Shown: in pieces, positions 5,973 to 50,073 of the stretch | Layout of the letters: the number at the start of each line of letters is the position of its first letter | Numbering within the stretch: the first letter of the stretch is position 1 | NCBI GenBank assembly: GCA_002327925.1 | Contig: DCVA01000003.1 | Span: forward strand, 5,809 to 69,808 | Reading direction: 5' to 3' | Length of the DNA stretch: 64,000 nt | From: Anaerolineales bacterium UBA2200 | Lineage (GTDB): Bacteria > Chloroflexota > Anaerolineae > UBA2200 | Program-made: the position numbers and the translations under genes | The notes under the pieces: model-generated | Database searches by the model: none | Told to the model about the DNA's origin: nothing | What the model saw: only the letters and a program-made list of their open reading frames with translations

Positions 5973-6000
5973 TTGACAAGCGATTCCGCAATGCTATAAT
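5973..6000 (+). promoter_or_regulatory. consensus sigma70 promoter TTGACA-N16-TATAAT upstream of alaX-L
   Basis: Both hexamers are perfect, which is unusual in ~65% GC DNA. The RBS AGGAAAGA precedes ATG 6047. Confidence 0.5.
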
Positions 6001-6046
6001 TCGTCCCGTTCGGTCCCAGTAGTCACTTTCGCCACACCAGGAAAGA

Positions 6047-7240
6047 ATGACCAAACGTCTCTACTACCAGGATTCTTACTGCCGCGAGTTCGATGCTTCC
6101 GTGGTCCGTTCGGTCGAGGGCAGCGCCGGAACCACAGGACTGATCCTCGATTGCACGAGCTTTTACCCAACCTCGGGCGGGCAGCCCCACGACCTCGGCA
6201 CGCTGGGCGGCGCGGTGGTCCTCGATGTGACCGAGCACGATGGCGAGGTGGTCCACTGGGTGGCGCGAGCTCCCGCGGCCCAGGCCGTGCACGGACAGAT
6301 CGACTGGCAGCGCCGCTTCGATTACATGCAGCAGCATACGGGCCAGCATATCCTCTCGCAGGCATTCCTCGAGCTGCTGAACGCCCGGACCGTCTCCTTT
6401 CACCTGGGCCAGGAGGCATGCACGATCGACCTCGACCGGGTGATCCTCGATCCGGCCGCCCTCGAGCGAGTGGAGGACCGGGCGAACCAGATCATCTTCG
6501 AGGATCGTGCCGTCACGGCAAGGATCGTGGATCCCGAGGATGTGCCTACATTGGGGCTACGAAAGGCGCCAACCGTCAGCAGCAACATCCGCATCATTGA
6601 GGTAGAGGGATTTGACCGCTCGCCCTGCGGCGGAACGCACTGCGCGCGGAGCGGCGAGGTGGGAACCATCGCCCTGCGCAAAGTGGAACGCCGCGGGGAG
6701 GAAACTCGCGTCGAATTCGTTTGCGGCTGGCGTGCCCTGCACGACCATCGCTGGAAGACCAGCACCATCAACGAGCTGGGGTTGGGCTTTAGTGTGAAGG
6801 ACCGCGAAGTCGGCGCCGCGGTACAGCGCCTGATCACGGATGCGACGGAGAATCGTCGTGACCTGCAGCAACTTCGCTCTGAGATGCTGCCTGCCGAGGC
6901 GCAGCGGCTTCTGGCCTCAGCCAGACCCTGGCGCGAGATGAGAGTGGTCGTGCAGTCCTTCGCGGAGCGCGAGGTACAGGAGCTGCGAAGACTGGCCACC
7001 CTTCTTACATCGGCTTCCGGCGTCATTGCCCTCCTTGGCACGAACGGACAGCAGGGCAGGCTGGTGTTTGTTCGCAGCAGGGATGTCGCCGCGGATATGG
7101 CGGCCCTGCTGAGCAAAACGTGCCAGAGTCTGGGGGGCAAAGGGGGCGGCCAGTCCGATCAGGCTCAGGGCGGCGGCTTTCCGGGAGAGAGAGTGGCCGA
7201 AGCCCTGGAGCTGGCCTACCGCACTCTGACCGAGCAATGA
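6047..7240 (+). CDS. alaX: alanyl-tRNA editing protein AlaX-L (AlaRS editing-domain homolog)
   Basis: Carries the editing-domain zinc motifs HTGQH and CGGTHC, with 397 aa typical of AlaX-L. Confidence 0.85.
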   Translation: MTKRLYYQDSYCREFDASVVRSVEGSAGTTGLILDCTSFYPTSGGQPHDLGTLGGAVVLDVTEHDGEVVHWVARAPAAQAVHGQIDWQRRFDYMQQHTGQHILSQAFLELLNARTVSFHLGQEACTIDLDRVILDPAALERVEDRANQIIFEDRAVTARIVDPEDVPTLGLRKAPTVSSNIRIIEVEGFDRSPCGGTHCARSGEVGTIALRKVERRGEETRVEFVCGWRALHDHRWKTSTINELGLGFSVKDREVGAAVQRLITDATENRRDLQQLRSEMLPAEAQRLLASARPWREMRVVVQSFAEREVQELRRLATLLTSASGVIALLGTNGQQGRLVFVRSRDVAADMAALLSKTCQSLGGKGGGQSDQAQGGGFPGERVAEALELAYRTLTEQ

Positions 7241-8118
7241 GGGGGCAGTCAATGCGTGAGATCGCTGCGGGAGTCTACTGCGAGACCAGCTATTGTTCCG
7301 GAAACGTGGGGTACGCCGTTACCGAAGACGGTGCCGTACTGGTAGATTCCCCCATGATGCCGAAGGACGCCTGGGACTGGCTGCGCAAGATCACCTCTAC
7401 CACCAAGAAGGGGATTGCCCTGCTGATCAACACCGACTACCAAGTCGAGCGCATCCTGGGCAACTGCTTCTTCCCGGCCTCGACCACCATCGGGCACCAG
7501 TTCACCTGGTCCGAGCTGCAACGCTACGATGAGGCGTACCTGCAGCGCCACATCAGCCACATGAGGGACTGCGACGCTCAGACTGCGGCCAACCTCAGCA
7601 AGACGCGCATTGTTCCGCCCGAGCTCACACTCACTTCCGACCTGACAGTGCACAAGGGCGGCCGCACCTTCCGGCTGATCTTTGCCGGAGGACACAGCCC
7701 GGCCAATATCATGGTCCACCTGCCGCATGAGCGAATCCTCTTCTCCGGCGATGTGGTTGTGAACGGTGAGCACCCCTGCCTGGCACAGGCCAACAGCATG
7801 CGTTGGCTGCACACGCTGGAGACCATTCGCAGGCTGAATGACCTGGATCTGGTGGTGCCAGGCAGAGGCGAACCCTGCAATCCGATGGCAACCGAGATGC
7901 TCTCGGACTATATCCAGAAGCTGCGCGAGCGCGTCCACGAGTGCTTCTCCGAGGGCTGCACGCGCCGCGAGTCGGTGGATCGGGTCCGAATGCTCGACTT
8001 CTACCCTGCACCGGCCAGCAGGCGTGAGGAGATCGAACGGCGGGTCCGTGCCAGCGTAGAGCGCGTATACGACGAGTTCAAGAAGGAAAACGAGAAGAAG
8101 CACCACCTGGACGGCTGA
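7237..8118 (+). CDS. MBL-fold metallo-hydrolase family protein (first His motif partly degenerate)
   Basis: Beta-lactamase-like fold signatures (…LINTDYQVE…, AGGHSPANIMVHLPHERILFSGD). The ATG overlaps the alaX stop (ATGA). An alternative start is at 7252. Confidence 0.6.
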   Translation: MRGQSMREIAAGVYCETSYCSGNVGYAVTEDGAVLVDSPMMPKDAWDWLRKITSTTKKGIALLINTDYQVERILGNCFFPASTTIGHQFTWSELQRYDEAYLQRHISHMRDCDAQTAANLSKTRIVPPELTLTSDLTVHKGGRTFRLIFAGGHSPANIMVHLPHERILFSGDVVVNGEHPCLAQANSMRWLHTLETIRRLNDLDLVVPGRGEPCNPMATEMLSDYIQKLRERVHECFSEGCTRRESVDRVRMLDFYPAPASRREEIERRVRASVERVYDEFKKENEKKHHLDG

Positions 8119-8174
8119 TTCCGCGGTGTGCCGTCCAGAGGATTCCCGCGGCCGGGCGCACACAGGAGCTGTCC

Positions 8175-10757
8175 ATGCCCTCCCAGGAGAACGCTTTTGC
8201 CCATGCCCTTCGGGGCATCCGCGCCATCGGAGTGCGAAACACGCTCCAGTCCGCCTTCTACCCGCTCAGACGCACCTTCCATCAGGGCAGTTTCTCAAAA
8301 GGTGGATCCTCGCCCTCGCTGCTGCAGGGTCTGGCGGCAGTGCTTCGCGGAGGGGCAGACCGGCCGCCGGCGCAGAGACCCAATCTCGCCGACTGCGACA
8401 CTCCGGGGGACGTAGTCTCGGCTGAGCGAGACGGGCAGGTCGTTACTATCCGCTGTGAGCGCGCCTCGCTGCAGATCACCGTCCTGGCGGCCGACACCCT
8501 GCGGGTGCGTTACGGCGTCTCCGGCACCTTCGCGACGGGCCCCTCCTACTCTGTGTGCAAAACGGACGACCAATGGGTTCCGGTCCCCTACTCCGTTGAC
8601 AATCTGGCGGAGGCTGTGGAGATACGTACGGACCTCCTGCTCTGTCGGGTGAGCCGTTCCCCGTGCCGCGTTTCGTTTCTGGATGATCGGGGAACCCCCG
8701 TTCATACTGACGCCCGGGGCATGGCCTGGTCTCGCGACCGGATAGCGCTCTCGACCGCCCTCGTGCCAGGGGCGCAGATCCTCGGGCTGGGAGAGAAGGC
8801 CTGCGGCCAGGACCGTCGCGGCCGGACGTTTACCCTGTGGAACACGGACCCTCAGAACTATCAACCTGGGGCGGATCCCCTCTATCTGAGCATCCCCATG
8901 TTCATCGCGCTTGTCGACGGCCGCGCCCACTCGGTGTTTTATGACAACTCCTACCGGGCCTCTCTCGACGTCGGGGCAACGCAGAACGACGAGTTGCTGT
9001 ACGCGGCAGACGGCGGGGAACTGTGCTACTACTACTTCCACGGCCCTGCCCTGCCCCAGGTCCTGGAACGCTACACAGAGCTGACCGGCCGCCCTGCCCT
9101 GCCTCCTCTCTGGTCGCTGGGCTTCCAGCAGAGCCGCTGGAGCTACTTTCCCGCCGACCGGGTGCGTGAGGTGGCCCGGCTCCTGCGCGAGCACCGCATT
9201 CCGTGCGATGCGTTGTACCTGGACATCCACTACATGGACGGCTACCGGGTCTTCACCTGGGATCGGCATCGCTTCCCGGACCCGACCGGTCTGCTGGCGG
9301 ATCTTCATCGGCAGGGCTTCCGGGTTGTGCTCGCGGTCGACCCTCATGTCAAGTCCGATCGCTCCTATCGCATCTGCGCCGATGGGCTGATGAAGCGAGT
9401 CTTCTGCACTTACCCGGATGGCAGGCCTGCAGGCGGGCCAGTTTGGCCAGGTGAGGCCTTCTTCCCCGACTTTACTGCTGAGCGGGTGCGCTGGTGGTGG
9501 GGCGACCTTTTCTCGGACCTGCTGGATGATGGCGTGGACGGTTTCTGGAACGACATGAACGAGCCAACGATCATCGGACCATCGGGCGATACCCTGGCCG
9601 ACTGCGTTCGCCATGACTGGGAGGGTCAGGGCGCCGATCATCGACAGGCGCACAACGTCTACGGTCAGCTTACCGCCAGAGCGACGGCAGAAGGGCTGCG
9701 GCGCCTCAGGCCGAACTCGCGTACCTTCGTACTGACCCGGTCAGGATGGGCCGGAGTGCAGCGCGATGCCTTCTCCTGGACCGGCGACAACAAGAGTACC
9801 TGGGAGCATCTGCGCCTGAGCCTGCCCATGGTACTGGGCAAAGGGCTGTCAGGTCTGGCGTTCACGGGAGCCGACGTCGGCGGGTTCGACGGCGACGCTG
9901 AAGGGGAACTGCTGGTGCGCTGGACCCAGATGGGTGCCTTCCTGCCCCTATTCCGCAACCATGCTTCCATCTGGAGCCGCGATCAGGAGCCCTGGGCTTT
10001 TGGCGAGAGCTACCTCGGCCCCATACGCGATGCCATCGAGCTGCGCTACCGGCTTTTGCCTTATCTCTACACGGCCGCCTGGCAATGCTCGCAGACAGGC
10101 GCGCCTCCTGCCAGACCGCTGGCCTGGGCCTTCCCCTCCGATCCACACGCCTGTCAGTTGGATAGTCAATTCCTGTGCGGCGACTCTCTGCTGGTGGCTC
10201 CGGTGGTAGAGCGAGGAGCAACTTGCCGGCAGGTCTACCTGCCGCGCGAGACCTGGTTCGACTACTGGACCGGTCAGCGACATCCGGGGCCCATCACACT
10301 GCACGCCGAGTCGCCCCTGGAACGGATTCCCCTCTGGGTAAGGGGGGGTACCGTTTTGCCAACCTGGCCGCTCCTGCAGCACACAGGCGAGGCAGAGCCG
10401 GATCGCCTGTTCCTGGATGTGTATTCGGGCAACGGCAAGAGCGTCCTCTACGAAGATGACGGGCTGAGCCAGGCCTACACCAGGGGTGACCTGAGGGTGA
10501 CCGAGTTCAGGCAGCGTCTGACCGACGCAGACCTCGAAATCACCGCCTCCCGCCACGGTGGGTACTGCCCTTCCTACGGCCTCTGCGAATGGCGCGTGTT
10601 CGGCCTGAGCCAGCCCTCGCAGGTCGAGGTAGACGAAAGGCCGCTCACGAATTGGCGATGGTTCCCCGATCAGCCGGGCGGCGTGCTGAGCTTTGAAACC
10701 GGGCCTCTGGTGCAGAGGGTGGTTATTCGCTTCGCGTCTGCGCCAGCAGCGCCATAG
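8175..10757 (+). CDS. glycoside hydrolase family 31 alpha-glucosidase
   Basis: GH31 nucleophile region [12 protein letters not shown] and an N-terminal beta-sandwich (…TLRVRYG). 860 aa. The exact start is uncertain because the N-terminal 60 aa are low-complexity. Confidence 0.9.
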
Positions 10758-36739: not shown

Positions 36740-36822
36740 GCCGAAGTGGCGGAACGGTATACGCGGCGGTCTCAAAAACCGCTGGGGGTAGCCCTGTGTG
36801 GGTTCGAATCCCACCTTCGGCA
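36740..36822 (+). tRNA. tRNA-Leu (anticodon CAA), class II with long variable arm
   Basis: Acceptor stem GCCGAAG/CTTCGGC. Anticodon stem GCGGT/ACCGC with loop CTCAAAA. T arm GTGGG-TTCGAAT-CCCAC. Discriminator A. No encoded CCA. Confidence 0.8.
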
Positions 36823-44717: not shown

Positions 44718-45875
44718 TCAGGGCACTCCGAAATCGAGGCGGCTGATCTGGTCCCAGTAATACGCCAGCCTGGTCCAGCGACCCTCGCGGCCGATGCAGC
44801 GAAAGTACGGAGGGTCGAAGGCCAGGATCAAATCGCCAATACGATAGCGCGGCAGAATGGGTGTTGACACTACCAGGCTGCCCGTCTCTCCGGGCGACAT
44901 CTCGTGCAGTTGAATGACGCCACGCTTCGTTGCCACTTCAAAGAAGAAGAGATCATAGTTCGGAACCCACGCCCGGCGACTATCGCGCTGCTGTCCGAAC
45001 ATGCCCTCGGTCGCCCCGTAGATCTCCATGATGGTAACCGGCCCGTACATCGCGCGCAGCGCAGGAACATAGCGCGTGTTGATGCCCGGTACGCTGCCCA
45101 GGGTCATCACGCGCGCCTTCCACAGGTCCCTGGGATAGACACCATGGGCACGCTTCAGATAGCGGCCAAAGGCAACCGCCGTAGGCGCCACGCCTCCCAC
45201 CACGGAGACATTCTGGTCCCTGCAGCGTTCATAGGCGAGCTCGAAACGGCGCTCCCAGTCGGCTCTGGTCTTGCCCCCGGCCAGCGCGTCGATGTCTTCC
45301 TGTGCGGGCAGAGAACGTAAGGGAGTCCACTGGGACACGTACTTGACGTAGATTCCCGAGCTGTACCCATACTCCACATCGCGCTGCCCCATCCGCACTG
45401 AGCCCACCACGGACGGAAAGTTGAGGTTCAGATTGAAATGCCGGAAGACCTCGTACTCGCCAGAGCGGAGCGTGTACTGCATCACGGCGCGTCCTGCGGC
45501 CACTCGCTTCATGATGTCGGTGGGTGTCATGGGGATGAACTTGGACTCACCGCGCGTTGTTCCGCGGGTGATCGCCCATCCCGCAGGCTCCTCGTAGAGG
45601 AGGAGATCCGTCTCACCTGCCATCGTGCGCTTGATGAGCGGCTTCAGGCTCTCGTAGGTAACGATGGGGAAGTTGCTGCGATACCTCTCGACCGTGGTGA
45701 CCCCGGCAGCGTTGTGTTCCTGCCCGTAGCGCGTTCGAGCATAGCCATCCACTAGGTCCTTCAGTACCTGCCCTTGTGCAGCAGCCGGGTCGTTCACCGC
45801 CTCATGCCACGGCTGCACGAATGCCGACAGCATGTCACGGGTCTGCTGGTCCTCCGTCGTCGTTTCCCCAGCCAT
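44718..45875 (-). CDS. GH3 family (auxin-responsive-promoter-like) adenylate-forming enzyme
   Basis: GH3/ANL-type motifs (SGTTRGESKFIPMT, YGATEGMFG). Confidence 0.75.
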   Translation of the reverse strand: MAGETTTEDQQTRDMLSAFVQPWHEAVNDPAAAQGQVLKDLVDGYARTRYGQEHNAAGVTTVERYRSNFPIVTYESLKPLIKRTMAGETDLLLYEEPAGWAITRGTTRGESKFIPMTPTDIMKRVAAGRAVMQYTLRSGEYEVFRHFNLNLNFPSVVGSVRMGQRDVEYGYSSGIYVKYVSQWTPLRSLPAQEDIDALAGGKTRADWERRFELAYERCRDQNVSVVGGVAPTAVAFGRYLKRAHGVYPRDLWKARVMTLGSVPGINTRYVPALRAMYGPVTIMEIYGATEGMFGQQRDSRRAWVPNYDLFFFEVATKRGVIQLHEMSPGETGSLVVSTPILPRYRIGDLILAFDPPYFRCIGREGRWTRLAYYWDQISRLDFGVP

Positions 45876-45927: not shown

Positions 45928-46773
45928 TCAGCGCGTGATCAGAAACGCCAGCTCGCCCGGGAACTCGAAACGCTCGATGCGCCCGGGCTGTCCAGAGACC
46001 AGTGCGCGAAAATGCTCCTCATAGTTGCGCGGCATCCCCCTGTCACGTCCCCCGAGAGAACGCATTGGGAAGGATACCAGCACGCGTTTGGCCGGGACGG
46101 TTTCCAGCAGTCGCCTTCCTGACGTGTTGTCCAACTGCTCCAGGCAGGGGAGACTTTTGAGCATCAGCGCCAGGTCGGCCTCTCCCGTAAGCTGTCCCGC
46201 TGAGAGGGCCAATGGCAGGTTGGCGGCCGCATCGCATGCTTCGGCCAAACCGGATACCCCCAGGAGGGGCAGTGCCTGTCGCAGGAAGGCGGCGAGGTCG
46301 TCATACATATCGCAGGCCAGATAGAGCGCTCCCGGAGCCAGGGGCATCCAGGGTATGCTCAGCGGAGCCAGGCCGCAGGCAATGTCCAGAACCGTCTTCG
46401 GGGGCTCGAGGCCGGCCAGTGATTCGGTGAAGAACCGCTCGAGAATCGGCAGCCGCTCTCTGGTCGACGACTGGTGCTGCATGATGCTACGACAGGCAGC
46501 GCGAAGCTCGTCCGGACGGCCACCCTGAGCCGCCCGTCGCATGACTTCCAGCCAGAAGGGATAATCCGCTTCCTCATCGAGGAATGCGCCACCCACCCGG
46601 TGCAGCCGGCTCTTGGTAGCCTTGAGCGCCGCCTTCCACGACCGCCTGGCAGACAACTCACGAGCGCCAACGCGTCGTACCAGATCAGGGCACACGGAAG
46701 CGTACTTCTTGCTTTCAGCGACAGCCCGGACGAGACGCTCCAGGTCATCCATTCTGGCCCTGGCGCAGCACAC
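45928..46773 (-). CDS. 16S rRNA (guanine1405-N7)-methyltransferase, ArmA/Rmt/FmrO aminoglycoside-resistance family homolog
   Basis: Motif-by-motif match to RmtB/ArmA: ESKKYASVCPDLVRR, HQSSTRERL, VLDIACGLAPLS, ADLALMLKSLPCLE and VLVSFPMRSLGGRDRGMPRNY. Confidence 0.8.
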   Translation of the reverse strand: MCCARARMDDLERLVRAVAESKKYASVCPDLVRRVGARELSARRSWKAALKATKSRLHRVGGAFLDEEADYPFWLEVMRRAAQGGRPDELRAACRSIMQHQSSTRERLPILERFFTESLAGLEPPKTVLDIACGLAPLSIPWMPLAPGALYLACDMYDDLAAFLRQALPLLGVSGLAEACDAAANLPLALSAGQLTGEADLALMLKSLPCLEQLDNTSGRRLLETVPAKRVLVSFPMRSLGGRDRGMPRNYEEHFRALVSGQPGRIERFEFPGELAFLITR

Positions 46774-47893
46774 GCAGCCGGGAGATGAGCTGCATCATGA
46801 AGCGGAGGTTGTGCAGCGTTGCCAGTCGGTAGAAGAGGCTGTCGCCCACACGGAACAGGTGATGCAGGAGGGCCAGAGAGTAGTCCGTGCAGCACAGGCA
46901 GTCGCAGTGCAGCGAAACGGGTTGACGAGACCGCATGTGCTTCTCGTCCTGCACATACACGTAAGAGTACCAGTTGTCCGTGAGCGAGCTGGCTGCAGGA
47001 TCCTCATCGAAGCGGAAGAGGCGGCCATGACGGGCATCGCGAGTGGGCATTGTGCTGTCAAACAGGCTGTACCCCATACGAGCGCAGGTGACCAGATTTC
47101 CCGGCTGGCCCACCCCCAGAGCATGCAGAGGGAATTGAGTCGGGATCAGCTCGCGCGTCCAGGCGATGACATCATGCAGCAGCTGGCCCCTGCTGTCGAG
47201 AGGCCAGCCTCCCAGACCATAGCCGTCGAAACCGATTTCCAGCAACTGCTCCGCGCAGCGCTTGCGCAGATCGAAATCACCCCCGCCTTGAACCACGGCA
47301 AAAAGCAGCGGGCTATCTTTGCCGCGATCAGCCACCCTGCGGTCGAACTCTTCGCGGCAGCGCCGCGCCCACTTCACGGTTCGCTGAACAGACTGGACCT
47401 GGTCTTCAGCTGGCTGGTCGACATCGGTGCAGTCATCGAGGCAGACGACGATGTCGGCCCCATATTCGAGCTGCAGTTGAACGCTCTTTTCGGGGGTGAG
47501 CTGGAAACGCCTCTCCGAGCCTTCAGGGCGGAACAACATTCCGCGTTCGGTGAGACTGCCGTAGCTGGGATTCTGGTGAATGAGCGAATAAATCTGGAAT
47601 CCGCCCGAATCCGTGACGATGGGCCCGTTCCAGCCAAAGAGGCCATGCAGTCCGCCAAGCGCCTTGATGGTGGAGGAACCCGGCTTCTGCATCAGGTGGA
47701 ACACGTTCATCTGCAGCGCTTCCACCCCACAACCCAGGAGATCTCTGGCCTCGAGCCCTCTCACGACTCCCTGAGTAGCATCGGGAAGGAAGAGTGGCAA
47801 CCCTACCTCGCCATGGGGCAGAGCCAGCGACCGGCGCAACTGCCCTGACCGATTAGGCTCCCGCACATTGTCTGGCACAATCCCCTCGCTCAT
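46745..47893 (-). CDS. tgt: tRNA-guanine transglycosylase family protein (queuine tRNA-ribosyltransferase-like)
   Basis: WNGPIVTDSGGFQ, MPTRDARHGRLF and zinc site CDCLCC…HHL. The GVGKPEDL region reads GVGQPGNL here. Its 3' end overlaps the rmt start by 29 nt. Confidence 0.85.
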   Translation of the reverse strand: MSEGIVPDNVREPNRSGQLRRSLALPHGEVGLPLFLPDATQGVVRGLEARDLLGCGVEALQMNVFHLMQKPGSSTIKALGGLHGLFGWNGPIVTDSGGFQIYSLIHQNPSYGSLTERGMLFRPEGSERRFQLTPEKSVQLQLEYGADIVVCLDDCTDVDQPAEDQVQSVQRTVKWARRCREEFDRRVADRGKDSPLLFAVVQGGGDFDLRKRCAEQLLEIGFDGYGLGGWPLDSRGQLLHDVIAWTRELIPTQFPLHALGVGQPGNLVTCARMGYSLFDSTMPTRDARHGRLFRFDEDPAASSLTDNWYSYVYVQDEKHMRSRQPVSLHCDCLCCTDYSLALLHHLFRVGDSLFYRLATLHNLRFMMQLISRLRVLRQGQNG

Positions 47894-47994
47894 AGACCCT
47901 CATAGTGCACTGAAATGGCCAATTCTGCAAAAGGCCGCTTGCCTGCTGAAGCAGACGTGAGTAAACTGCGACCATTCTGCCAGCATGAGGATTC

Positions 47995-49302
47995 ATGGGT
48001 TCTGACCCCTGTACAACGTCCGTCGGCGCCGTTGCCGAGAGAGAAGCCTACGAGACCCAGATCCAGCGGGACCTGCGTTGGAATTTCGCCGTCAATGTGG
48101 CCGATGGGGCCTTCTTCTGGCTCGCACTGAGCTTTGCCGCACCCAGCACGATCATGCCCCTGTACGTCAGCCATCTGACAGACAATGCCCTCCTGATCGG
48201 CCTTGTCACAGCCATCAACGGGGCCGGCTGGTATCTGCCCCAATTGCTCACGGCGAATTATGTCGAGCGTATGCCTGTCAAGAAGAAGCTGGTTATCAAC
48301 CTCGGCCTGTTCACTGAGCGGCTGCCCTTTGTGGTGATGGCCGCCTCGGTCTTTGCCTTCGCCGGCTCGCGCCCTGATCTGGCTCTGGTCTTCTTCTTCC
48401 TGACCTTTACCTGGCACACCCTGGGCGCGGGCATCATTGCCGTGGCATGGCAGGATATGGTGGCCAAGGTCATCCCCTCGCGCTACCGGGGCAGACTGCT
48501 GGGATTGGCCAATGCTATGGGCACAACGACCGGAATGCTGGGATCCGCGGTGGGCGCCTGGATCCTGGCACGCTACCCATTCCCCACCAACTATGGGATC
48601 TGCGTGTCCCTGCTGGCGCTGTTCATCCTCGCCTCGTGGGGCAGCCTGGCCCTGACCCGCGAGCCGCCTCTGCACTCCTCCAAACCCGTCATCTCCCTCA
48701 GGCAGTACGCTCAGCGCCTGCCCGAGATTCTACGCCGCGACCGCAACTTTGCCGCCTATCTGGCCACCCGGGTGATGACGGCTTTCGCCAAAATGGGAAT
48801 AGGGTTTGTCGCCGTATACGCAGTCCAGCGCTGGAAGATGAGCGACAGCCAGGCCGGCCTCTACACCACGGTGCTTCTGGCGGGAGAGACGGCAGCCTAC
48901 CTGGGCGCCGGAGCACTTGGAGACAAACGAGGGCACAAGCTGGTGCTGGAGCTCAGCCTGATCCTGCTGGCCCTGGCCATGCTGGTCTCCTTCCTGGCAC
49001 CCTCCCCCGTATGGATGTACGTGGGCTTCGCCGCAATGGGCACACTGATCGCGGCAGACATCCTCTCGGGGATCGCCATTACCATGGAGTTCAGCAATCC
49101 GGAAGACCGGCCCACCTACATCGGCCTGGCCAATACCGTACCTGGACTCTTCTCTGCGGTGGCCCCGCTTCTGGGCGGGTTGATCGCACTGCGGGCCAGC
49201 TACACGGCTCTGTTTCTCACTGCCGCGTTACTGTCACTGGCAACCTGGGGTGTGCTTCACTGGCTGGTTCGCGAACCGAGGCATGCCCCAAGGGCCGGGT
49301 GA
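47995..49302 (+). CDS. MFS transporter
   Basis: 12 predicted TM segments and an MFS-like loop between TM2 and TM3. Transcribed divergently from tgt. Confidence 0.8.
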   Translation: MGSDPCTTSVGAVAEREAYETQIQRDLRWNFAVNVADGAFFWLALSFAAPSTIMPLYVSHLTDNALLIGLVTAINGAGWYLPQLLTANYVERMPVKKKLVINLGLFTERLPFVVMAASVFAFAGSRPDLALVFFFLTFTWHTLGAGIIAVAWQDMVAKVIPSRYRGRLLGLANAMGTTTGMLGSAVGAWILARYPFPTNYGICVSLLALFILASWGSLALTREPPLHSSKPVISLRQYAQRLPEILRRDRNFAAYLATRVMTAFAKMGIGFVAVYAVQRWKMSDSQAGLYTTVLLAGETAAYLGAGALGDKRGHKLVLELSLILLALAMLVSFLAPSPVWMYVGFAAMGTLIAADILSGIAITMEFSNPEDRPTYIGLANTVPGLFSAVAPLLGGLIALRASYTALFLTAALLSLATWGVLHWLVREPRHAPRAG

Positions 49303-49314
49303 ACGCTCCACTGA

Positions 49315-50073
49315 CTACGGCGCTCGCCTAGCCGCGTAGAGCCCATAGCCGATGAGCGGCAGGAATCGCCTCCATGCTCCCAGCATAGTACGGCTGAGGA
49401 AGACTCTGCTCAGGCGCAGGTTCGCCAGGCCTTTCGTCATTGCCTGAACGTATCCCCCCAGGCCATCGACCTGACGGTGGCTCCTGGCCTGTTCACGCAG
49501 GCTGAAGCGACGTACATCATCCCGCAGCTGGTCGAAGCCGGCTTCTGCGAGGAGGCGGCGCCACCCATTCGCTTCCTGAGCATGGATGCCGAAAGTAATC
49601 TGTAGAATCTCCTCAAGCTCGCGCGGAGGCGATTGCAGGAGAGTCATCTCGTTCAGCCCAACGACGCCGCCCGGCCGCAGAATGCGGCGAAACTCCGCCA
49701 GCACGTCTGCCGCCCGGCAGAAGGCCAGAACCGATTCGGCGATTACGAGGTCGAACTCACCATCAGCGAACGGCATGTTGTGCCCGTCGGCTCTAGTGAC
49801 ACGCGGGTCCCGCAGCAAACACTGCTTGTCCACCCGTCTACGGGTAGCGGCAGTGTTCACAGCGAGGCAATCCAGGGCAACGAGGCGAACCCCGTAGTCA
49901 CGCACCAGCATCACAGCCGTGTGACCTGTGCCACAGCCCACGTCCAGCACCCTCTCTCCGGGGTGCATTCCACACAGCGCGAGCAGGCGACGGGTCCCCT
50001 CCGGACCTCCGAGATGCTCTGTGATCCCGGCCATCTCCCAGATGCTCCGCGGAACAGCCGCAAGGGTACTCAT
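49315..50073 (-). CDS. class I SAM-dependent methyltransferase
   Basis: Motif I VLDVGCGTGH and an acidic motif II. Confidence 0.8.
   Translation of the reverse strand: MSTLAAVPRSIWEMAGITEHLGGPEGTRRLLALCGMHPGERVLDVGCGTGHTAVMLVRDYGVRLVALDCLAVNTAATRRRVDKQCLLRDPRVTRADGHNMPFADGEFDLVIAESVLAFCRAADVLAEFRRILRPGGVVGLNEMTLLQSPPRELEEILQITFGIHAQEANGWRRLLAEAGFDQLRDDVRRFSLREQARSHRQVDGLGGYVQAMTKGLANLRLSRVFLSRTMLGAWRRFLPLIGYGLYAARRAP

Follow-up and report, generated by a model that had tools for sequence, protein, structure and literature searches.

Does a chromosomal homolog of the aminoglycoside-resistance methyltransferases protect its host from antibiotics, or does it modify the host's own ribosomes as a matter of routine? 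A 64-kb stretch of DNA from Anaerolineales bacterium UBA2200 (contig DCVA01000003.1, positions 5,809 to 69,808), hereafter the window, raises this question because it carries a gene resembling the 16S ribosomal RNA (rRNA) methyltransferases that form N7-methylguanosine at G1405 (m7G1405) and make pathogens highly resistant to aminoglycosides. We propose, with a probability of roughly 70%, that the gene encodes a functional S-adenosylmethionine (SAM)-dependent m7G1405 methyltransferase that modifies the decoding centre constitutively as a housekeeping function, with resistance as a by-product. An initial annotation had placed a 281-aa open reading frame (ORF) with a GTG start at 45928..46773 on the minus strand. 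The frame is present as described, and its translation contains all the motif blocks cited (ESKKY...CPDLVRR, HQSSTRERL, VLDIACGLAPL, DLALMLKSLPCLE, and VSFPMRSLGGRDRGMPRNY). The start codon, however, needs revision: the public gene call and the homolog alignments begin at the ATG at 46752, so this is probably the true start, giving a 274-aa protein encoded at 45928..46752 (minus strand). A public protein of 274 aa with the ATG start, P0001, is 100% identical to the window protein, which has already been automatically annotated in JGI and NCBI. The seven additional in-frame codons reaching up to the GTG (46753..46773, minus strand) fall within the 3′ end of an upstream tgt homolog and are probably not translated.

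The protein is a clear member of the FmrO/Rmt family, as the initial annotation had stated. The profile search suggested there, against PF07091 (FmrO), gave 175.6 bits (E = 1.7e-51, gathering score 27) over profile positions 2–241 of 255. Among the sequences of solved structures, the best match was Sgm (3lcu; E = 3e-45 to 1e-44, 36.6% identity), and the RmtF, RmtB, RmtC, and ArmA structures matched at E = 1e-26 to 1e-13. We predicted the structure with AlphaFold2, obtaining a mean predicted local distance difference test score (pLDDT) of 91.2 and a predicted template modelling score of 0.89. In a Foldseek comparison, the top 16 PDB matches were all m7G1405 enzymes, led by Sgm (template modelling score 0.87–0.92) and RmtF (0.80–0.84), with RmtB, RmtC, and ArmA thereafter; the next matches were generic methyltransferases scoring below 0.5. 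The model has the two-part fold of the family, a helical N1/N2 domain that binds the 30S subunit and a class I Rossmann methyltransferase domain, and it superposes on Sgm over its full length, the N-terminal 30S-binding domain included. Low pLDDT values occur at the loop equivalent to RmtC residues 237–246; they are expected, as this loop is disordered in crystals and becomes ordered on the ribosome.

An alignment of the window protein to 80 relatives, to Sgm, and to seven acquired enzymes allowed us to map the residues whose roles in RmtC are known from mutagenesis and from the structure of its 30S complex (PMC10288597; bioRxiv 10.1101/712810). Throughout, the 80 relatives or loci are the best 80 of at least 586 species genomes that carry a relative. 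The 30S-docking residues K20, Y21, K47, and R50 of RmtC correspond to K16, Y17, K44, and K47 of the window protein, and H54, which distorts h45/h44, corresponds to H51. At the position of Y60, which stacks on the flipped base, the window protein has F57; phenylalanine is likewise found here in Sgm and in RmtD, RmtE, RmtF, and RmtG, and the Y60F variant of RmtC stays active (PMC10288597). The SAM-binding residues R111, D134, D160, and D188 have their counterparts in R100, D123 (within LDIACG, motif I), D148, and D174, the last equivalence being taken from the ACD/ADL/CDL block since MAFFT shifts RmtC by one column. The G1405 contacts K204 and K236 correspond to K199 and R231, the loop residues R241 and M245 to R236 and M240, and Y249 to Y244. 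None of the 80 relatives departs from H51, R100, D123, D148, K199, M240, or Y244. Sgm (3LCU/3LCV), the sisomicin-gentamicin resistance methylase of Micromonospora zionensis, which has the same N1/N2 helical domain and C-terminal Rossmann domain, also has the same SAM and G1405 residues, and shares with the window protein not only the phenylalanine at the Y60 position but also a glycine at the S239 position. Each RmtC residue shown to be essential for SAM binding, 30S docking, or G1405 flipping therefore has an identical or conservative counterpart here. The protein thus has all the features that m7G1405 formation is known to require; from this we infer the activity itself and its G1405 target.

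The complex of RmtC with the 30S subunit, solved by cryo-electron microscopy (8GHU), serves as a mechanistic template. RmtC and ArmA, the acquired enzymes best understood in structure and mechanism, are only 25–26% identical to the window protein, and the basic N2-domain residues R68 and K72 occur specifically in the RmtC subclade. By this analogy, the enzyme would methylate N7 of G1405 in helix 44 (h44) of the assembled 30S subunit. Its helical N-terminal domain, through K16, Y17, K44, and K47, would dock on the surface formed by h24, h27, h44, and h45. H51, together with the loop bearing R236 and M240, would then pinch and distort h44, flipping out G1405. K199 and R231 may position the base, F57 may stack on it, and R100, D123, D148, and D174 are predicted to hold SAM.

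The genomic setting suggests in which role this activity is used. Immediately upstream lies a gene for a 382-aa Tgt-family paralog (46745..47893, minus strand). Its stop codon at 46745–46747 and the ATG start of the methyltransferase gene lie within an 8-nt overlap, ATGGATGA (46745..46752, minus strand), read directly in the sequence, so that the translational link to tgt claimed in the initial annotation is borne out. We then examined the 77 related loci whose upstream sequence extends for 1 kb or more. A tgt homolog lay directly upstream on the same strand in 66 of the 77, nearby in three, and was missing from eight. The junction is typically an overlap of 4–41 nt, with 8 nt as the commonest class (15 loci). 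In two loci, L026 and L054, the reading frame of tgt seems to stay open through about 464 nt of the methyltransferase gene until a stop is reached, owing perhaps to a frameshift, a misassembly, or an unusual gene arrangement. The tgt link is the most conserved and most informative feature of the locus, under-weighted in the initial annotation, and it speaks for an RNA-modification module of the housekeeping kind and not for an antibiotic-driven gene. We also considered a 907-aa protein, P0404, as a Rosetta-stone fusion with Tgt and rejected it: it combines a RecN/SMC-N part, not Tgt, with a C-terminal FmrO domain and is probably a merged gene call.

A second recurrent neighbour is rsmI. RsmI is the 16S rRNA Cm1402 2′-O-methyltransferase and, with RsmH, one of the C1402 methyltransferases; our assignments of both exceed the curated cut-offs. 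In 24 loci rsmI immediately precedes tgt (at approximately 4170–4830 in L007, L008, L010, L013, L023, L026, L030, and others), and in four of the eight loci lacking tgt it immediately precedes the methyltransferase gene (L020, L055, L061, and L070). This gene order ties the methyltransferase to another enzyme modifying the helix-44 decoding centre, independently of tgt. We suggest that the module is ancient, that it is translationally coupled with a specialised Tgt paralog, and that in many relatives it would include the C1402 methyltransferases RsmI and/or RsmH. Neither has a homolog in the 64-kb window.

We annotated the window from the contig gene tables of four metagenome assemblies, with Pfam scans of the remaining ORFs. 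The contig was recovered in all four assemblies with identical housekeeping neighbours. The window encodes a sugar ATP-binding cassette transporter, transketolase, glutamine synthetase (GlnA), glycogen phosphorylase, 4-alpha-glucanotransferase, PspA, elongation factor G, FtsY, fructose-bisphosphate aldolase, phosphofructokinase, PolX, a sigma factor, NUDIX and CYTH proteins, a polyprenyl synthase, and UbiA. No transposase, integrase, or integron was found in the gene tables or Pfam scans of the 64 kb, and the GC content is uniform at 0.60–0.66. The chromosomal housekeeping context free of insertion sequences (IS) and integrons, described in the initial annotation, thus holds across the whole window. 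Rfam and tRNA scans of the window returned a single structural RNA, tRNA-Leu(CAA) at 36740–36822, and no rRNA gene.

We analyzed the distribution of the family in large protein and genome collections. A collection of 5.8 billion proteins contained more than 1,289 relatives, the nearest of which are 50–57% identical to the window protein; those nearest relatives that carry names come from Chloroflexi, Anaerolineae, or Ktedonobacterales. An exhaustive profile search yielded 1,569 clusters at 50% identity (E ≤ 1e-10). Scanning one genome per species with the single protein as query gave no matches, and we used an alignment-based query, which identified a relative in at least 586 species genomes, mostly Chloroflexota. 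The best 80 are nearly all Chloroflexota (Anaerolineae, Ktedonobacteria, Chloroflexia, Caldilineae, and Thermoflexales), the others being two Armatimonadota bins and one Poribacteria bin. The phylogeny with Rmt, ArmA, and Sgm enzymes called for in the initial annotation was built by neighbour-joining. The Chloroflexota-type proteins, the window protein among them, form a single clade with 98% bootstrap support, sister to Sgm (91%) and apart from RmtB/D/F/G (92%) and RmtC/ArmA (88%).

In 18 of the 80 loci, a further FmrO-family gene, divergent from the first, follows it in tandem; its product is about 32–35% identical to the window protein (L010, at 6818–7633, and L009, L013, L018, L023, L025, L026, L030, L035, L049, L051, L052, L057, L059, L064, L065, L068, and L077). 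These second copies form their own clade, sister to that of the first copies. Where RmtC has its essential Met245, these proteins carry V or L, and in most of them Q takes the place of K47; such substitutions suggest that their specificity differs. No second copy is present in the window, whose gene is of the first-copy type.

The initial annotation had considered a self-protection gene of an organism exposed to aminoglycosides or making them. On this reading the gene would be a dedicated antibiotic-resistance determinant, retained because neighbours or the organism itself produce aminoglycosides, and would act with an adjacent exporter of the major facilitator superfamily (MFS). Resistance or self-resistance to aminoglycosides is indeed the only role established experimentally for the family, and the Chloroflexota-type clade is sister to a producer enzyme. 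Sgm, however, confers self-resistance in an aminoglycoside producer, and linkage to a biosynthetic cluster would be expected of a producer methyltransferase such as Sgm, GrmA, KgmB, or FmrO, whereas no aminoglycoside-biosynthesis genes were found by gene tables or Pfam scans within the 64 kb examined here. The window gene is coupled instead with a Tgt paralog and is part of a clade that spans the Chloroflexota. Self-protection of a producer thus finds no backing in this locus. A divergent MFS gene is present close to the methyltransferase locus (47995–49302, plus strand); it adjoins tgt rather than the methyltransferase gene itself, and an MFS neighbour is kept in only two of the 80 related loci, so that its use as a functional hint is not supported. 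The conserved neighbours are tgt, rsmI, and rsmH, not resistance or biosynthesis genes, and the gene occurs in hundreds of species over several classes. Many carriers, among Anaerolineae and Clostridia, are strict anaerobes and take up aminoglycosides poorly, so antibiotic selection becomes a weaker reason for conservation. Overall, we regard a dedicated resistance function as unlikely. Because the gene is associated with RNA-modification genes, is broadly distributed, and is accompanied by neither biosynthetic nor mobile genes, we favour a housekeeping m7G1405 methyltransferase; resistance to 4,6-disubstituted deoxystreptamine aminoglycosides would then be a by-product and not the selected function.

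Next, we compared the locus with the surroundings of the acquired resistance genes. A tgt gene lies immediately upstream of the acquired rmtD1, rmtD2, rmtG, rmtE2, and rmtB2, each near IS91-type or insertion sequence common region (ISCR)-type elements. The rmtG module has the order rsmH-tgt-rmtG with an 8-nt overlap between tgt and rmtG, as in the window. The tgt before rmtE2 is truncated, and a metallophosphoesterase gene separates tgt from rmtB2. Upstream of rmtF we found no remnant of tgt, and the 150-nt flanks of rmtC and armA showed no tgt either. RmtB, RmtD, RmtE, and RmtG thus belong to the family of the window protein and, like it, have a gene for a Tgt of one and the same unusual subfamily upstream. 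They differ in being 30–33% identical to it and in lying in a separate clade, and their genes are flanked by IS91/ISCR, IS26, and Tn3 on conjugative plasmids, whereas the window has no mobile elements.

We searched for closer chromosomal relatives of these plasmid modules with an RmtB/D/F/G profile, which returned 2,359 environmental relatives. One of them, P0139, is 77% identical to RmtG and is encoded in a chromosomal operon that runs tRNA synthetase gene, rsmH, tgt, rmt, rsmI; the neighbouring Mur ligase, Ddl, and Spo0A genes indicate a Clostridia-type genome. In this locus (L101; metagenome-assembled genome GCA_965348695.1, CBDSAN010000088.1), rsmH-tgt-rmt-rsmI occupies 5979–9609. Compared with the plasmid rmtG module (L092, 3967–6783), Tgt is 94%, RsmH 88%, and Rmt 77% identical, and a second Clostridia-type locus shows the same gene order. 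The L101 operon resembles the window in its tgt-then-rmt order, overlapping genes, Tgt motifs, and chromosomal housekeeping setting. It differs in phylum and in Rmt clade (33% identity) and in being flanked by both C1402 genes, neither of which is in the window. These comparisons point to relatives of the L101 organism as a candidate source of rmtG, and the plasmid rmt modules seem to be parts of chromosomal RNA-modification operons that were captured. The rsmH-tgt-rmtG operon is touched on in one sentence of a review. A parallel is offered by sul4, which is ISCR-flanked, has a partial folK neighbour, and has been related to Chloroflexi dihydropteroate synthase genes, as cited in PMC6416219.

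The shared gene order also bears on the suggestion that the window gene is an ancestral or reservoir form, if taken as a direct or recent progenitor of an acquired armA or rmt gene, since the same order recurs in the fragments captured beside rmtB2, rmtD, rmtE2, and rmtG. The window protein, however, is only 25–33% identical to the acquired enzymes, with a maximum of 33% to any of 1,587 plasmid records, and it scored 58–98 bits on the RmtB–H subfamily models, whose cut-offs are 500–550. Together with the separate, 98%-supported clade, these values indicate that it is not the recent source of any clinical determinant, and the Clostridia-type loci are closer to RmtG and RmtD. For the window gene, direct progenitor status is effectively refuted.

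Several points weigh against a housekeeping m7G1405 methyltransferase. The NCBIfam equivalog NF000466 (Rmt family) scored the window protein at 200.7 bits, under its curated cut-off of 250, so NCBI's rule would not automatically name it an equivalog; the Rmt of the Clostridia-type locus L101 clears this cut-off with 283.5 bits. An 8-residue insertion, LALSAGQL (residues ~181–188; 46189–46212, minus strand), lies between the third and fourth Rossmann strands with a pLDDT of ~66 and has no counterpart in any of the 80 relatives or the reference enzymes. Vertical inheritance is deduced from the distribution and from the monophyly of the clade in trees that are all neighbour-joining. The Chloroflexota homologs have been called "uncharacterized homologs" (bioRxiv 10.1101/712810), and in the literature we found neither a report of m7G1405 in native Chloroflexota rRNA nor one of an aminoglycoside phenotype. 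Nor did the published literature yield a biochemical test of any Chloroflexota homolog. The literature searched on FmrO in Chloroflexota and on an origin of the 16S rRNA methyltransferases in Clostridia or Chloroflexi held nothing relevant save a figure legend in Nosrati 2019 and the review sentence on rsmH-tgt-rmtG.

Some of these points would also fit an FmrO-fold methyltransferase that has drifted to another rRNA or tRNA guanine and would produce neither m7G1405 nor resistance. Besides the sub-threshold NCBIfam score, identities of 25–37% to the characterised enzymes, the link to a tRNA-type enzyme, and the divergent second paralog in some relatives, which shows that the family can diversify, speak for such drift. 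Yet the RmtC residues that dock on h24/h27/h44/h45 and that flip and position G1405 are all kept, several of them invariant in 80 of 80 relatives, and the superposition on Sgm extends through the N-terminal 30S-binding domain. Moreover, RmtB, RmtD, RmtE, and RmtG, which are proven m7G1405 enzymes, share the tgt-linked arrangement. We therefore consider a drifted substrate improbable and retain G1405 as the expected target.

The partner of the methyltransferase proved to be unusual in its own right. The window Tgt (46745–47893, minus strand) matched the Pfam TGT family with 307 bits and TIGR00449 with 305 bits (cut-off 47.6), and it resembles the canonical queuosine Tgts of E. coli and Z. mobilis in fold family, catalytic Asp, and zinc site. 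We compared it with further rmt-linked Tgts, including those encoded at L091 (4903–5988), L092 (4905–5996), L093 (4998–6071), and L101 (6917–8008). They keep the catalytic Asp residues (D89 and D264 in E. coli numbering), D143/C145 (D-x-C), the Gln, and the CxCxxC...H zinc site; on the basis of the catalytic Asp and zinc site, the window Tgt is a TGT-superfamily enzyme. The rmt-linked Tgts depart from canonical ones, however, in the preQ1-pocket motif, by which the 7-substituent of the base is recognised: GGLAVGE (L231-A232-V233-G234-E235 in Z. mobilis) has become GGWPLD(x), with GGWPLDS in the window. In a census of rmt-linked Tgts, W was found in 61 of 62, P and L in 62 of 62 each, and D in 61 of 62. 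The FDECxP of canonical Tgts is likewise replaced by LDxCTH. The GGWPL motif is common to the Chloroflexota, the Clostridia-type loci, and the tgt genes of rmtB2, rmtD, and rmtG, and the rmtE2 remnant has GGFPVN.

We next asked how the rmt-linked Tgts relate to canonical Tgts of four phyla; the two groups separated with 100% bootstrap support. The rmt-linked Tgts are 30–42% identical to canonical Tgts, whereas canonical Tgts across phyla share 39–54%. Canonical Clostridial Tgts, encoded in a queA-tgt-yajC context and carrying GGLAVGE, are 47–51% identical to the Tgts of E. coli, Bacillus, and Bacteroides but only 34–37% identical to the Clostridia-type rmt-linked Tgts and 30–37% identical to the rmt-linked type to which the window Tgt belongs. 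Taken together, these indirect but consistent lines of sequence evidence suggest that the rmt-linked Tgts are a distinct paralogous subfamily. The window Tgt does not fit the description of a bacterial queuosine Tgt: on TIGR00430 it scored 303 bits, below the cut-off of 306.75 (all rmt-linked Tgts scored 284–303), it has GGWPLDS in place of GGLAVGE with its E235, and its neighbours are the methyltransferase and MFS genes, not queA or yajC.

A far-reaching reading of this partnership may be entertained, though we hold it to be speculative and rather doubtful. Instead of being the queuosine enzyme, the window Tgt could be the founding member of a transglycosylase subfamily that forms, alongside the m7G1405 methyltransferase and joined in numerous genomes by RsmI and RsmH, a conserved decoding-centre module in Chloroflexota and Clostridia at the least, acting by base exchange as an "editor" or "eraser" to the m7G "writer"; the clinical rmtB, rmtD, rmtE, and rmtG would then be ISCR-captured fragments of it. 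The Trp-Pro-Leu-Asp pocket might accommodate guanine in its cationic, 7-methylated form, or else a guanine of helix 44 in 16S rRNA. The literature searched on Tgt paralogs in Chloroflexi contained nothing relevant.

Between tgt and the MFS gene lies a 101-nt divergent intergenic region (47894..47994) which, by its position, is presumed to hold the promoter of the tgt-methyltransferase transcript; a scan for the sigma-70 consensus found no site within it, and sites in the region were not informative. In the relevant intergenic regions near the operon, scans for promoter and terminator consensus sequences found no more than chance would give. A gene for a 385-aa protein (44718..45875, minus strand; Pfam GH3, 89 bits) begins 52 nt downstream of the methyltransferase gene on the same strand and is possibly co-transcribed with it. 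Its product carries the GH3 N-terminal domain only, with weak similarity to the lyso-ornithine lipid synthetase OlsH. A GH3 gene adjoins the methyltransferase gene in only six of the 80 loci, those of the closest relatives, and is therefore a lineage-specific neighbour. A further SAM-dependent methyltransferase gene at 49315–50073 (minus strand) scored 109.7 bits against the DVU_1556 family, below the cut-off of 155; related loci do not keep this gene, which probably has no connection with the methyltransferase. Two antisense ORFs, 46613–47848 (plus strand, 411 aa) and 46025–46324 (plus strand, 99 aa), overlap tgt and the methyltransferase gene and were favoured by a gene picker based on length and third-position GC content. 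They have no homology support and are typical high-GC artefacts, and we rejected them because homology strongly backs the minus-strand genes.

The methyltransferase is, in itself, an expected member of a known family, and its clade has already been mentioned in the literature. In the searchable literature, however, we found no description of the cross-phylum conservation of the tgt-rmt(-rsmI/rsmH) module, of its match to the tgt remnants beside rmtB, rmtD, rmtE, and rmtG, or of the linked Tgt as a distinct paralog with a remodelled pocket. The coupled pair offers an explanation for the tgt fragments long seen beside these four genes, and it provides a synteny marker for tracing donors, as illustrated by the one Clostridia-type locus that matches the rmtG module at 77–94%. 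The partner Tgt, with its altered base pocket, is a concrete biochemical target. More broadly, the family appears to have a chromosomal housekeeping role that is widespread among environmental and gut lineages and not confined to producers and pathogens, which changes the interpretation of metagenomic hits to "rmt-like" antibiotic resistance genes. If m7G1405 is indeed native to these phyla, it would represent a new intrinsic modification of the decoding centre, and these phyla would be intrinsically resistant to drugs of the kanamycin and gentamicin class.

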